This document shows, piece after piece, positions 11,088 through 15,224 of a stretch of 64,000 nt of DNA. The notes beneath the pieces are model-generated. The model was not told where the DNA came from. It saw nothing but the letters and a program-made list of their open reading frames with translations, and searched no databases. Source of the DNA: Truepera sp. GTDB taxonomy: Bacteria; Deinococcota; Deinococci; Deinococcales; Trueperaceae. Location: the NCBI GenBank assembly GCA_965218435.1, contig CBDCKW010000009.1:2720001-2784000 (forward strand). Direction: 5' to 3'. The translations under genes were made by a program, and so were the position numbers. Every line of letters starts with the position of its first letter. The first letter of the stretch is position 1.

Positions 11088-11729
11088 ATGGCTAACGGTT
11101 TGGAACATAGGCAAGAGCAGCGTTATGCGGTACTCAGACATATGTACGATGTTGCAGTTGAGGGTGCAAACAATCCCAGCAAGGAATTTTATGAGAATGA
11201 CGTTGCAAAGGGATTAGGTTACCCTACACAGGATGTTAAATCGGCCTTGAGTTATCTCAAAGGCAAAAATCTTGTGGAAGTTGCCCAAATATATCACGGC
11301 CCTAGAATGAGTTACAGACTAACCCACTGGGGTATCGAAGAAATTGAGCAGTCGCTGCAAGAGCCAAAGGAACGCACCGAACATTTTCCATTTCAGATCA
11401 TCCAAAACTTCAATGCCACGGTCGGCGCTGTTCAAACAGGCACACAATCTACGGCCAATATCACCCAAAACATCGGCGTTGACTTGTCTGACGTATTCAT
11501 CCTGCTCGAGCAGCTAAAACCGAAAGTCGTTGAGCTTCCACCAGAGCAGCAAGGAGATGCGCTGGACTCTATAGATGCGCTCGAAGGTGAGCTGAAATCA
11601 CAAGACAAAAGCCCAAGACGTATTAGGGAGTTACTTGAAGGACTCGGAGGAATTGCTCGAGGAACCGTTACATTTGCTTCTCAAGTAGCAGTTTTAGCGC
11701 AACAGCTCAAAAACTTAGGCGTATTTTAA
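11088..11729 (+). CDS. Hypothetical protein (winged-helix-like N-domain, N/Q/T-rich linker, helical C-domain), AT-richer than neighbours
   Basis: 213-aa ORF; YLKGKNLVE..YRLTHWGIEEIE resembles a wHTH wing. Confidence 0.7.
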   Translation: MANGLEHRQEQRYAVLRHMYDVAVEGANNPSKEFYENDVAKGLGYPTQDVKSALSYLKGKNLVEVAQIYHGPRMSYRLTHWGIEEIEQSLQEPKERTEHFPFQIIQNFNATVGAVQTGTQSTANITQNIGVDLSDVFILLEQLKPKVVELPPEQQGDALDSIDALEGELKSQDKSPRRIRELLEGLGGIARGTVTFASQVAVLAQQLKNLGVF

Positions 11730-11898: not shown

Positions 11899-12498
11899 AT
11901 GAATTCACCTGACCCCCAGCGTTTGCCGCCGCAGCTACGTTTTATCACCGAAATAGACAAGTTAAAACGCGTCTTACGGCAGACGACACTGATAGACGCC
12001 TCGAGGCGTGAAAACAGCGCCGAGCATTCGTGGCACCTCGCAGTGATGGCGTCGGTACTGCTCGAGTACGCTCCGCCGGAAACCGACCTCACCCATGTTT
12101 TAGAAATGCTTTTACTCCACGATATTGTCGAGATAGATGCCGGAGACACCTTCGCTTATGACGCCGCTGCAAACTTGGATAGAGCTGAACGCGAACAGGC
12201 TGCCGCCACGCGTATCTTTGGGCTTTTACCCGACGATGTAGAGACTCGGCTGCGCGGGCTGTGGGAAGAGTTTGAGGACGGAGCGACCTCCGAGGCCCGG
12301 TTTGCCAACGCCCTCGACCGCTTGCAACCTTTTTTACACAACTACCACACGCAGGGCGGCACATGGCGGGCTCACGGCGTCTCTAAAGCGCAGGTACTCG
12401 AGCGGATGCGCCCGATTGAACAAGGTATACCAGCACTCTGGCCCTACGTTTTGGAACGAATTGACGAGGCGTGCAAGCTTGGCTATATCGCGCCGTAA
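11899..12498 (+). CDS. HD-domain phosphohydrolase (YfbR/HDDC2-like 5'-deoxynucleotidase family)
   Basis: RENSAEHSWH, LLHDIVEIDAGD, ALDRLQP; AAGGAG RBS. Confidence 0.9.
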   Translation: MNSPDPQRLPPQLRFITEIDKLKRVLRQTTLIDASRRENSAEHSWHLAVMASVLLEYAPPETDLTHVLEMLLLHDIVEIDAGDTFAYDAAANLDRAEREQAAATRIFGLLPDDVETRLRGLWEEFEDGATSEARFANALDRLQPFLHNYHTQGGTWRAHGVSKAQVLERMRPIEQGIPALWPYVLERIDEACKLGYIAP

Positions 12499-12506
12499 CA
12501 AGCTGG

Positions 12507-13796
12507 TTACGGCTGCAACCGGCTTCCATCTCTTGGAAACGCCCGCGCAAACCGCACATTCGGAATGTTGAGTAGGAGCGCCGTCAACCGCTCCGCCCCG
12601 AGCGCAAACCCGCCGTGCGGCGGCATCCCGTACTTAAAGACCTCTAAGTAGCCCCGAAACGCTTCCGGGTCCATCTTCCGCGCCTGAAGCTCTTCGACGA
12701 GCATCTTGTAGGTGTGGATACGCTGCCCGCCGGAGCTGATTTCCAGCCCCCGAAAGATGAGGTCAAAGCCCCTGGTTAGGCCGTCTTGAATCGGGTAGGT
12801 ATAAAAGGGCCGCGCGGCTTGCGGATAGTTCGTGACAAAGACAAAATCCGAGCCATGTTCCTCTTTGGCCCAGTGCCCGATCAAGCGTTCGGCTTCGGGA
12901 TCTAGGTCTTTGCCGCCGGTTTGGTGGCCGTAACGTTCTGCTACGAGGTCCCTTGCCTCGAGCAAGGTAATCCGTGGAAACGCTACGCTTACGTCCGGGG
13001 CAGTCGCCTCGAGCAGCGTCAGCTCAGCCGCACACGTCTCAGCGGCGTGCGTCATCATCGTTTTGAGCAGGGTTTCCTCGAGCCCCAGCACCTCGTCTAC
13101 CGACTCGATAAAGCCCATTTCAACGTCCAAAGACAGGTATTCAGACAGGTGCCGCGATGTGTGCGACAGCTCGGCGCGGTAAACGGGCGCGGTTTCAAAC
13201 ACCCGCTCGTACACGCCGACCATAATCTGTTTGTAAAGCTGCGGCGACTGCGCCAGATACGCGCGTTTGCCGTAGTAGTCCACTTCAAAGAGCGCCGCGC
13301 CGCCCTCAGCGCCCGCTGCAACGAGTTTGGGCGTAAAGATTTCGGTAAAGTCTTGTGCAGTCAGCGTATCCCGAAATGAGCGCACCAGCTCAGCTTGCAC
13401 TTTAAGTGCGGCTCTAGCTTTTGGACTCCGCAGCGAAACGTGACGGTACTCGAGCAGCGTGTCCGGGTTGACATTCCACTCTTCTTTGGGGATTTCAATC
13501 GGTGTGGGTTCGGTGGCTTCAGCAATGACCTCGAGCCCGTCAGCCTGAAGCTCCAGACCACCGGGCGCTTTTTTGCTCTCGATCACCTTGCCCGACGCGC
13601 GTACCGACGACTCGGCTAACGGCAGATCAACTTTGCCGAATACGCACTGCACCACGCCGCTGCGGTCGCGGAGCAGCAAAAAACGGATGCCGCCCAGGTC
13701 GCGGCGAGAATGCACCCAGCCCTGCAAGGTGACGTGTTCACCCAAGTGTTCAGGCAAGTTAGCGACTAGCGTGCGCGGTTCAGCGGTGGTGCTCAT
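12507..13796 (-). CDS. aspS: Archaeal-type non-discriminating aspartate--tRNA(Asp/Asn) ligase (AspRS2)
   Basis: 429 aa with no bacterial GAD insertion; LAQSPQLYKQ, GLEISSGGQR, PPHGGFALGAER. It has the His (GWVH) and Pro (KAPGG) residues typical of non-discriminating enzymes. Confidence 0.95.
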   Translation of the reverse strand: MSTTAEPRTLVANLPEHLGEHVTLQGWVHSRRDLGGIRFLLLRDRSGVVQCVFGKVDLPLAESSVRASGKVIESKKAPGGLELQADGLEVIAEATEPTPIEIPKEEWNVNPDTLLEYRHVSLRSPKARAALKVQAELVRSFRDTLTAQDFTEIFTPKLVAAGAEGGAALFEVDYYGKRAYLAQSPQLYKQIMVGVYERVFETAPVYRAELSHTSRHLSEYLSLDVEMGFIESVDEVLGLEETLLKTMMTHAAETCAAELTLLEATAPDVSVAFPRITLLEARDLVAERYGHQTGGKDLDPEAERLIGHWAKEEHGSDFVFVTNYPQAARPFYTYPIQDGLTRGFDLIFRGLEISSGGQRIHTYKMLVEELQARKMDPEAFRGYLEVFKYGMPPHGGFALGAERLTALLLNIPNVRFARAFPRDGSRLQP

Positions 13797-13810
13797 AAGA
13801 CTCCTTCAGC

Positions 13811-13836
13811 AAAAAACCTCGAGGGGTGCTCGAGGT
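13811..13836 (-). terminator. Intrinsic terminator (attenuator) in the aspS leader
   Basis: mRNA ACCUCGAG-CACCC-CUCGAGGU followed by a U-tract, immediately before the GAAGGAG RBS of aspS. Confidence 0.85.
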
Positions 13837-13858
13837 CAGAGGCTACTCAAATAAGTGC

Positions 13859-13906
13859 CTACGCCCCGTACCACCAATTATCGTCGTCAAGGCGCGGGGG
13901 GTTCAT
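13859..13906 (-). CDS. Putative Asp/Asn leader peptide MNPPRLDDDNWWYGA
   Basis: ATG AAC CCC CCG CGC CTT GAC GAC GAT AAT TGG TGG TAC GGG GCG TAG, lying between the promoter and the terminator upstream of aspS. Confidence 0.75.
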   Translation of the reverse strand: MNPPRLDDDNWWYGA

Positions 13907-13913
13907 AGGATGA

Positions 13914-13942
13914 ACTGTAGCATTCACGCGTCCATAGGGCAA
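13914..13942 (-). promoter_or_regulatory. Promoter for leader/aspS (leaderless start)
   Basis: TTGCCC-N17-TACAGT with extended TG; the -10 ends 7 nt before the leader ATG. Confidence 0.7.
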
Positions 13943-14171
13943 CCGCCGAGTCTTCGTCTTCAGCCGAGAAACGTGACAAACACGACCCGTACAAACTCAG
14001 TTGGCAGATCAGGTCAGTGCAGGCCGGTAGAGCAGGTACGTGAGGGCAACGCCCAAGGTCGGATGAAAAAACGCTGTAACGACCCTTTGCTCCAAATAAC
14101 CGCTATGCTCATAGTGTAGACACCAGCCAGGTCTGGCTAAACTGGCAGCCCCGATTTTGAACGGAGTACAG

Positions 14172-15224
14172 GTGGACTTATCCTCGTTGCAACAGCTTCC
14201 CCTCGTAGACTCACACCTCGACTTGGCTGAAAACGTCACCGTGGCCGGACGCGACCTTACCTTAGACGCAAAAGCAATTAGAAGGCTTGAAAAACGCTCA
14301 GAAAATCAGGCGACCGTCTCGCTGCCTGAACTTGAGCGGGGCGGTATCGCCGTCGCCTTTGCAACGGTGACCGCAGGGTTGCAGGCAGGTCCGGGTCTGC
14401 CCCCCGGTCCCCATACGCCCGAAGCGGCTGAGGCGCACGCGCTGTCGCAGATTGAGCTCTACGAAAGCTGGGCGCGGCAAGGGCGCGTCAGGTTGCTGCA
14501 CTCGGTACGTGACCTCGAGCATCACCTCGAGCTGTGGCAGGGCGACCGCAAACCGGGCTTGGTCTTGCTCATGGAAGGCGCTGAGCCTATCGTACAGGTG
14601 AGTGACTTGCCGAGGTGGTGGCGGCGTGGTCTACGGCTGATCGGGCTGACCTGGGCAGACACGCGTTACGGCGCGGGTGTCGGAACAGGCAGCGAGACGT
14701 TCAGACAAGGTGGCCTAACGCCGGAGGGTGTTGCCTTACTCGAACAGATGGCTGAACAGGGATTCGTCTGGGACATCTCGCACTTGGCCGAAGCGGGCGT
14801 ATGGCAAGGGCTCGAGCTGGGCGTCTCCCGCGTTTGCGCGTCCCACGCTAACGCACGTGCGCTGACGCCGACCGACCGGCACCTTAGCGACACAGTTATT
14901 CGCGCAGTTGCCGAGCGGGGCGGCGTGATCGGCGTCGTGCTTTACAACGGGTTTCTCGAGCACCGCTGGGAGCAAGACCGGTCTATCGTCGTAACGCTTA
15001 ACGAGCAGGTCAGGCGGCACGCGGCTTATCTCGCTGAGCTCGTCGGGTGGGAACATCTAGGCGTAGGCTCCGACTTGGACGGTGGTTTAGGCTTAGAAGA
15101 GAGTCCACAAGAGATAGACACGGTAGCTGACCTCTACAAAGTGGGTGAGGTTGTCCCCGCTGAGGCTCGAGCCGGCGTCTTAAGTACCAACTGGCTCGAG
15201 TTTCTCAGAAGATCATTGCCATAG
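14172..15224 (+). CDS. Membrane dipeptidase family (peptidase M19) metallohydrolase
   Basis: DSHLD, MEGAEP, DISH, SHAN and GSDLDG motifs; GGAG before GTG 14172. Confidence 0.9.
   Translation: MDLSSLQQLPLVDSHLDLAENVTVAGRDLTLDAKAIRRLEKRSENQATVSLPELERGGIAVAFATVTAGLQAGPGLPPGPHTPEAAEAHALSQIELYESWARQGRVRLLHSVRDLEHHLELWQGDRKPGLVLLMEGAEPIVQVSDLPRWWRRGLRLIGLTWADTRYGAGVGTGSETFRQGGLTPEGVALLEQMAEQGFVWDISHLAEAGVWQGLELGVSRVCASHANARALTPTDRHLSDTVIRAVAERGGVIGVVLYNGFLEHRWEQDRSIVVTLNEQVRRHAAYLAELVGWEHLGVGSDLDGGLGLEESPQEIDTVADLYKVGEVVPAEARAGVLSTNWLEFLRRSLP

Follow-up and report, generated by a model that had tools for sequence, protein, structure and literature searches.

The gene for the archaeal-type aspartyl-tRNA synthetase of the non-discriminating kind (ND-AspRS; aspS2) in Truepera sp. 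is preceded by what, judged from sequence, appears to be a real and conserved leader-peptide attenuator, whose regulatory action we infer. Very probably it is a ribosome-coupled transcription attenuator, with conservation and modelled RNA folding pointing to read-through into aspS2 under shortage of Asn-tRNA(Asn) or Asp-tRNA(Asp). The window that we analysed is a 64,000-nt stretch of the genome, for which a sequence-only reading had proposed an Asp/Asn leader peptide governing competing antiterminator and terminator structures; conservation, reading frame, covariation and predicted folding give that proposal good support. The promoter, ATG, 15-codon ORF, Asp-Asp-Asp-Asn run, terminator and ribosome-binding site (RBS) were all recovered at the positions it had given (Table 1).

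On the minus strand, TTGCCC is followed by a 17-nt spacer, TACAGT, 7 nt and then the leader ATG at 13906; transcription is predicted to start at this ATG, hence the leader would be leaderless. The terminator hairpin (13837-13815) consists of eight Watson-Crick pairs and one G-U at -12.7 kcal/mol, with six T at 13816-13811, and folding of the leader RNA has z = -2.5.

Table 1. Parts of the aspS2 leader and the gene behind it, in window coordinates.
Feature	Coordinates	Strand	Remarks
-35 box TTGCCC	13937..13942	-	window sequence; most relatives have TTGAC- at the same place
extended -10 box TG-n-TACAGT	13914..13922	-	TG at 13922-13921, TACAGT at 13919-13914
leader ORF, 15 codons + stop, MNPPRLDDDNWWYGA	13859..13906	-	stop TAG at 13861-13859
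control codons Asp-Asp-Asp-Asn, GAC GAC GAT AAT	13877..13888	-	in the leader ORF
GATAAT (Asp9-Asn10 codons), speculative internal -10 box	13877..13882	-	D. deserti parallel, codon bias
segment 1, predicted anti-antiterminator	13886..13894	-	would pair with 13871-13862 when the ribosome is absent
segment 2, G-box (core CGGGG 13868-13864)	13862..13875	-	within the last leader codons
segment 3, terminator 5' arm + loop	13825..13837	-	common to antiterminator and terminator
intrinsic terminator (3:4 hairpin) + U run 13816-13811	13811..13837	-	predicted fold, covariation
RBS of aspS2, AAGGAG	13801..13806	-	window sequence
aspS2, archaeal-type non-discriminating aspartate--tRNA(Asn) ligase, 429 aa	12507..13796	-	ATG 13796; profile and PDB matches

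The aspS2 product matches NCBIfam PRK05159 at 557.5 bits (cut-off 353) and TIGR00458 at 397.3 bits (cut-off 368.4), its best PDB match is 1n9w/3kfu (T. thermophilus AspRS2, E 2.4e-177), and its closest titled relatives are Trueperaceae proteins. His29 and Pro78, which we take to be the residues tied to non-discrimination, align with His and Pro of T. thermophilus AspRS2 (1n9w); in the Thermococcus-type enzyme (1b8a) the aligned residues are Trp and Lys. The two profile cut-offs and this alignment bear out the earlier assignment as an archaeal-type AspRS2 carrying the His/Pro residues. An HD-type ORF with a weak 5'-deoxynucleotidase match (11899-12498, plus strand) converges on aspS2 (12507-13796, minus strand), leaving 8 nt between the stops, and a 355-aa ORF (14157-15224, plus strand) is divergent from the leader promoter; neither the latter nor the 213-aa ORF at 11088-11729 (plus strand) has an NCBIfam match.

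The genome also scores over cut-off for bacterial-type AspRS (D-AspRS) and AsnRS, whose genes sit in a hisS-aspS-x-asnS cluster, and for GatA, GatB and GatC, whose genes are scattered; AsnA, archaeal AsnA and full-length AsnB were not found in this genome of 100% estimated completeness. Given both AspRSs, AsnRS and GatCAB, and no asparagine synthetase among the genes found, the leader is likely to be an attenuator of asparagine biosynthesis, or supply, in Truepera sp. In T. thermophilus and D. radiodurans the indirect path is described as the sole asparagine route (PMC2330236), and their extra AspRS as being of archaeal origin and serving that path (PMC4206432). At gatA, gatB, gatC and hisS-aspS1-asnS of the Truepera sp. 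genome, a co-regulating Asp/Asn leader was not found. We discarded the idea that the leader is Asp-rich since ND-AspRS is the only AspRS: the bacterial-type enzyme is over cut-off in 41/41 genomes checked, as is AsnRS in 40 of them.

With the query used, aspS2 was found in 94 of 102 Trueperaceae genomes, and 87 of these were scored, after exclusion of the unpublished genome G097 and of six that lack upstream DNA. G097 counts only towards the aspS2 tally (94/102) and the AsnB tally (56/102, below). The unit scored comprises a promoter, a start 6-11 nt behind the -10 box, a short Asp/Asn-rich ORF, a G-box and a terminator. It precedes the ND-AspRS gene in 74/87 genomes (three of the 74 cut by a contig end) and in 16/16 sampled genomes of four other families, counts that, like the frame counts below, overstate their statistical weight, as related genomes are not independent. 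It is degenerate in one genome of the 87 (G007, where promoter, G-box and hairpin are kept and the ORF has no Asp and one Asn) and missing from the remaining 12. The alignment of relatives that the sequence-only reading had suggested as a check thus shows a conserved upstream ORF with its D/N run, and stems that covary.

Pooling family, other-family and titled loci and removing duplicates gave 129 distinct calls of promoter plus start, while 24 loci yielded none (contig ends, duplicates, true losses and one -35 variant; 19 were checked by eye). The spacer between -10 box and ATG is 7-11 nt in 129/129 calls, in a search that allowed 4-11 nt, and exactly 7 nt in 65. A terminator-like hairpin follows in all except two (L047 and L051, which have promoter and start and no terminator); these count among the 129 and were left out of the structural sets of 127. 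With the query used, no relatives were found in viral contigs, and a plasmid search returned 12 distant matches, all below 50% identity.

Some loci are peculiar. (i) At L160 (G069) and L179 (G065) the leader is cleanly missing; the promoter directly precedes the aspS2 start, and aspS2 itself looks leaderless. (ii) At L014, L020, L165 and L093 there is likewise no leader, and the gene immediately upstream of aspS2 has at its end a conserved TGCAATAAT, which can be read as Cys-Asn-Asn or as an extended -10-like box; at L014 the upstream frame continues into aspS2, giving a 582-aa open frame. (iii) L040 (G042) retains the hairpin, with no leader ORF between it and a promoter-like site. (iv) L162 (G049:C2:214691-215341) is a second copy of aspS2 and contains one internal TGA; the 63-codon ORF of its leader is still in frame from the promoter ATG to an NND run and the G-box. 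(v) The Thermus-like leaders L024, L030 and L103 have very strong hairpins (-28 to -33 kcal/mol) followed by only 2-3 U. The notion that the leader was lost upon gain of asnB is unsupported, since AsnB is over cut-off in 8/12 leader-less genomes (and below it in the other four) vs 56/102 overall, counts in which many AsnB matches may not be true asparagine synthetases. These matches are of two types, one of ~600-700 aa (often in nearby pairs) and one of ~510-570 aa.

Asp and Asn account for 506 of the 2130 in-frame codons of the 129 leaders (24%), vs 28 and 39 (1-2%) in the other frames. Relative to base shuffles N is enriched 5.35x and D 4.21x, the next residue being F at 1.87x, and all four Asp/Asn codons are used across the leaders, whose ORFs range from 7 to 63 aa. 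The strongest sign, from sequence comparison, that the leader ORF is probably translated is the frame kept between ATG and G-box: their spacing, which takes 21 different values between 38 and 183 nt, is divisible by three in 71 of 76 family leaders, with the start set by the promoter, the G-box by the terminator match, and frame used for neither. The non-coding stretch between G-box and terminator arm served as control, and its length falls into the three phases as 27/28/19.

The run holds both D and N in 115/127 leaders (four ORFs lack N, seven lack D), and their joint presence would fit sensing of precursor and product. The earlier proposal was that both substrate tRNAs are sensed; such dual sensing would not be universal, and the physiological role is better put as asparagine supply. 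Trueperaceae clusters are Asp-heavy (D 177, N 102), as against D 73 and N 110 in the comparison with Deinococcus leaders. The G-box lies inside the ORF in 74/76 family leaders and just behind the stop in 49/49 other-family leaders, 5-11 nt after the last D/N codon. Since the G-box lies within the last leader codons, a C-terminal LGA recurs in the family (51 of 78 leader peptides).

In the RNA, folding predicts an antiterminator in which the G-box (segment 2) is paired to the 5' arm and loop of the terminator. The sequence-only reading had this register right; its duplex is worth -12.2 kcal/mol, and the helix extends to -15.8 kcal/mol (13868-13831) and to -24.2 kcal/mol (13875-13825), vs -12.7 kcal/mol for the terminator. 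An unguided alignment of 78 family leaders shows pairing of 94.8% for the terminator, where 7/9 pairs carry two-sided changes, and of 95.9% for the antiterminator, where 5/7 pairs do, the latter in only 7 cells, a small number of changes among related sequences. None of 500 shuffles matches either the terminator or the antiterminator pairing, slid registers score lower, and segments 2, 3 and 4 change jointly in several rows (e.g. L013, L022, L157 and L161). The segment-1 helix originally drawn is possible in the window (-12.8 kcal/mol) but is mostly lost in L002, the closest relative (-5.2 kcal/mol), and the register is better shifted to 13894-13886 with 13871-13862, the pairing found in the MFE folds of L001-L003 and maintained through compensatory changes. 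Across the family the partner position of this 1:2 helix varies; the helix is stronger than shuffled in 64/76 family and 32/49 other leaders.

Folding with a ribosome covering part of the RNA, another suggested check, gives the expected flip from read-through to termination between Asn10 and Trp11, but the result depends on the footprint. If the ribosome covers 12 nt beyond the A site, the terminator arm of the window model is held at 1.00, 1.00, 0.99 and 0.79 for D7 to N10 and at 0.06 for W11; with 15 nt, N10 no longer protects the antiterminator (0.06), and with 9 nt, W11 still does (0.79). At equilibrium, for the full RNA with the 12-nt cover, the terminator wins from D8 onward, so that read-through at D8-N10 would need co-transcriptional kinetics. 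The median cost of freeing the arm in the 78 family leaders is 11-12 kcal/mol on the run and ~4 kcal/mol four codons later, and in 49 other-family leaders it falls from 9.5-9.8 to 2.4 kcal/mol at the stop. This drop is at least 3 kcal/mol in 61/78 family leaders when taken from the first D/N codon and in 67/78 from the last; the corresponding other-family counts are 34/49 and 27/49. By a noisier probability metric, the arm is held and then released in only 51-52 of 118 leaders. The spacing fits a predicted scheme in which segment 2 is left free by a ribosome stalled at the control codons and covered by one that travels on.

The steps that we envision are as follows. RNA polymerase would start at the leader ATG, and the ORF would be translated leaderless, coupled to transcription. 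A ribosome waiting at Asp7-Asn10, presumably for charged tRNA, would cover segment 1 and leave the G-box available for pairing with the terminator 5' arm, and the folding predictions then favour read-through into aspS2. A ribosome that has moved beyond Asn10 would cover the G-box and let the terminator form; with no ribosome, segment 1 would hold the G-box and the terminator should form likewise. The purpose may be to boost tRNA-dependent asparagine synthesis (ND-AspRS followed by GatCAB) at its first step; this synthesis appears to be the only asparagine route in the Truepera sp. genome. Through its Asp codons the leader would also register the precursor, as multivalent attenuators do.

The 4.8-Mb genome contains 549 promoter-plus-start patterns, of which five are combined with a short ORF and a terminator, and these five units precede ilvB, pheS, leuS, leuC and aspS2, i.e. 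cognate targets in 5/5 cases. A looser scan, using the -10 box only, gave 15 matches that include the same five units. Short ORFs with three consecutive D/N codons number 233, two of them with a terminator, and the aspS2 leader is the only one with the promoter pattern. The combined layout of promoter, ORF and terminator before aspS2 is not due to chance.

Several other explanations were weighed. The translated leader might sense general ribosome speed, or a pause due to peptide or context (Pro-Pro, Asp-Pro, two Trp), instead of Asp/Asn charging; we consider this unlikely. The window ORF does contain PP and WW, DP occurs in 27/127 leaders and NP in 23/127, and the U-ending Asp/Asn codons, strongly over-used relative to the aspS2 coding region, could slow ribosomes whatever the charging. 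However, W is not enriched over base shuffles (0.98x) and P is depleted (0.67x), PP is found in just 6/127 leaders and W just after the run in 5/127, and the enriched residues are exactly the two matching the target enzyme. The UGG UGG of the window is accounted for by its pairing with the terminator loop. Reading by queuosine-tRNA is opposed by depletion of the other such codons, H (0.58x) and Y (0.27x), and arrest motifs of the RAGP type, as in SecM-like leaders, occur in 0/127 leaders. Trp sensing by WW, Pro stalling, queuosine sensing and an arrest motif were thus rejected on codon enrichment and motif counts. We give a very low probability to an RNA-level switch (T-box-like, riboswitch or protein-bound) or a leaky terminator, with the ORF a mere by-product. 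Asn codons following Asp are AAT in 59/61 family cases, vs 21% AAT in aspS2, which amounts to a constraint at the nucleotide level, and in 113/118 leaders terminator formation is predicted when no ribosome is present. Against such a switch, no Rfam family matches the leader (two weak unrelated matches, E 4.5-5.8, in window positions 13500-14500, and none in six relative loci), the 5' part varies over 7-63 codons and keeps only its frame, the Asp codons vary synonymously, and the leader is too short for a T-box.

Still less probable is control exerted mainly on aspS2 translation, by hiding of the RBS, or via Rho, after the manner of mycobacterial Cys leaders, in place of intrinsic termination. 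U tails are weak in some Thermus-like members, and in the window the RBS (13806-13801) begins just 4 nt behind the U run; it nevertheless lies outside both the antiterminator and the terminator hairpin, at least four U stand behind 120 of 127 hairpins, and in many members the hairpin is far upstream of the aspS2 start. As for a chance arrangement in one genome, promoter and terminator are each within shuffle range when taken alone: the promoter scores 8/12 in a generic sigma-70 scan whose limit, 9/12, is reached by no site, and there are three terminator-like sites in 1 kb vs 1.0 +/- 1.3 in shuffles. Conservation in five families, the frame test, covariation and the genome-wide control nonetheless refute chance, whose probability we put at close to nil. 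The ribosome-coupled attenuator thus remains our preferred reading.

A bolder reading adds a second function to the control codons, and we regard it as doubtful: the GA[C/T]AAT pair would double as ribosome sensor and as internal -10 box of a second transcript that sets a basal floor. This transcript would start just before the G-box, lack segment 1 and the ORF, and always fold the antiterminator, so supplying a basal level of ND-AspRS beneath an attenuator of dual Asp/Asn type common to the phylum. An RNA with its 5' end at 13870 is indeed predicted to fold as the antiterminator, and tables for D. deserti give a second mapped start within the leader, at -93, with -10 motif GATAAT and counts of 48/139/40/121 vs 32/556/137/466 for the main start (PMC4007540). 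GA[C/T]AAT is present in just 8/29 Thermus/Meiothermus-like and 2/16 Deinococcus-like leaders, U-ending codons are preferred along the whole run in all families, and slow-codon selection explains the AAT bias equally well as an internal promoter. Kin have the motif in common through descent, and the second 5' end in D. deserti could be a processing product.

The sequence-only reading knew of no described Asp/Asn leader attenuator for an AspRS; a putative one had in fact been listed in 2014. The 14 leaderless leader peptides given for D. deserti include Deide_10019, a leaderless ORF of 14 codons, rich in Asn and Asp, whose start site maps to the A of its ATG (de Groot 2014, PMC4007540 Tables S4, S9 and S10), which Table S9 names as putative attenuation leader of 'Aspartyl-tRNA synthetase, non-discriminating'. 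Because there are 14 of them in D. deserti, leaderless translation would be the norm for such leaders in this group. Like the window leader, Deide_10019 is a leaderless Asn/Asp ORF before a 429-aa ND-AspRS, with a -10 box (TACACT) 7 nt upstream of its start (PMC4007540). In the first column per library of that source, its 45 nt have 117/724/214/631 reads vs 118/36/99/28 for the 1290-nt gene, an excess that fits early termination and is weak evidence, the libraries being 5'-biased. The listing is as putative, and the parts of PMC4007540 covered here contain no RNA structure, family survey or functional test. Near-identical peptides occur in the Deinococcus loci of our set (L077). Deinococcus leaders are Asn-heavy with the G-box after the stop, whereas Trueperaceae leaders are Asp-heavy with the G-box inside the ORF.

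The trpL, hisL, thrL, ilvL and pheM-pheST leaders are Yanofsky-type leader-peptide attenuators. The aspS2 leader resembles them in its cognate-codon ORF, its predicted 1:2, 2:3 and 3:4 pairings and its U-tailed terminator; as in thrL it would read two amino acids, and as in pheST its target is a synthetase. It differs in its leaderless start without Shine-Dalgarno sequence and in its Asp/Asn specificity, and unlike Yanofsky-type targets, ND-AspRS doubles as first enzyme of tRNA-dependent asparagine synthesis. The trp mechanism is summarised in PMC4007540 as well. In mycobacteria, leaderless sORFs with a polycysteine run are reported to sense the amino acid by ribosome stalling, as shown experimentally (bioRxiv 10.1101/834739). 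Those Cys leaders unmask an RBS, whereas the predicted output of the aspS2 leader is transcription termination. In C. acetobutylicum an Asn T-box controls aspS2-gatCAB by binding uncharged tRNA directly, with no translation. That system likewise ties ND-AspRS expression to tRNA(Asn) charging; unlike it, the Truepera leader has no T-box match and the gat genes are scattered.

To our knowledge, the control of tRNA-dependent asparagine synthesis in the lack of an asparagine synthetase is little known outside T-box users. The leader offers a precise, testable answer for Deinococcota, including genera with good genetics (Thermus, Deinococcus). The attenuator would sit on a horizontally acquired ND-AspRS and read both product (Asn-tRNA) and precursor (Asp-tRNA). 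What was a one-line putative entry in 2014 becomes, through the survey, a family that has two layouts, a predicted switch and compensatory changes by which mutagenesis could be guided. We found no functional test or RNA model of an Asp/Asn aspS2 leader in a literature search that covered subscription journals and older comparative surveys thinly; a Shewanella aspS leader is mentioned in PMC2659441, in a passage that gives no Asp/Asn peptide detail. The mechanism itself is textbook and a peptide counterpart was already reported, so the surprise is moderate.

The same order of promoter, ATG, ORF and terminator, with other amino acids, is found before ilvB, leuC, leuS and pheS in both Truepera sp. 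and D. deserti, where these genes are likewise leader targets in Table S9 (PMC4007540). In Truepera sp. the sister leaderless units (L221-L224) are at G000:C9:1024938 (plus strand, ilvB), 1206965 (plus, pheS), 1990337 (plus, leuS) and 783979 (minus, leuC). At G000:C9:125099 (minus strand) a 12-codon ORF with three Trp codons lies behind a -10-like box, with a weak hairpin and a further ORF after it. Runs of the Leu codon CTA occur in the ilvB and leuC leaders.
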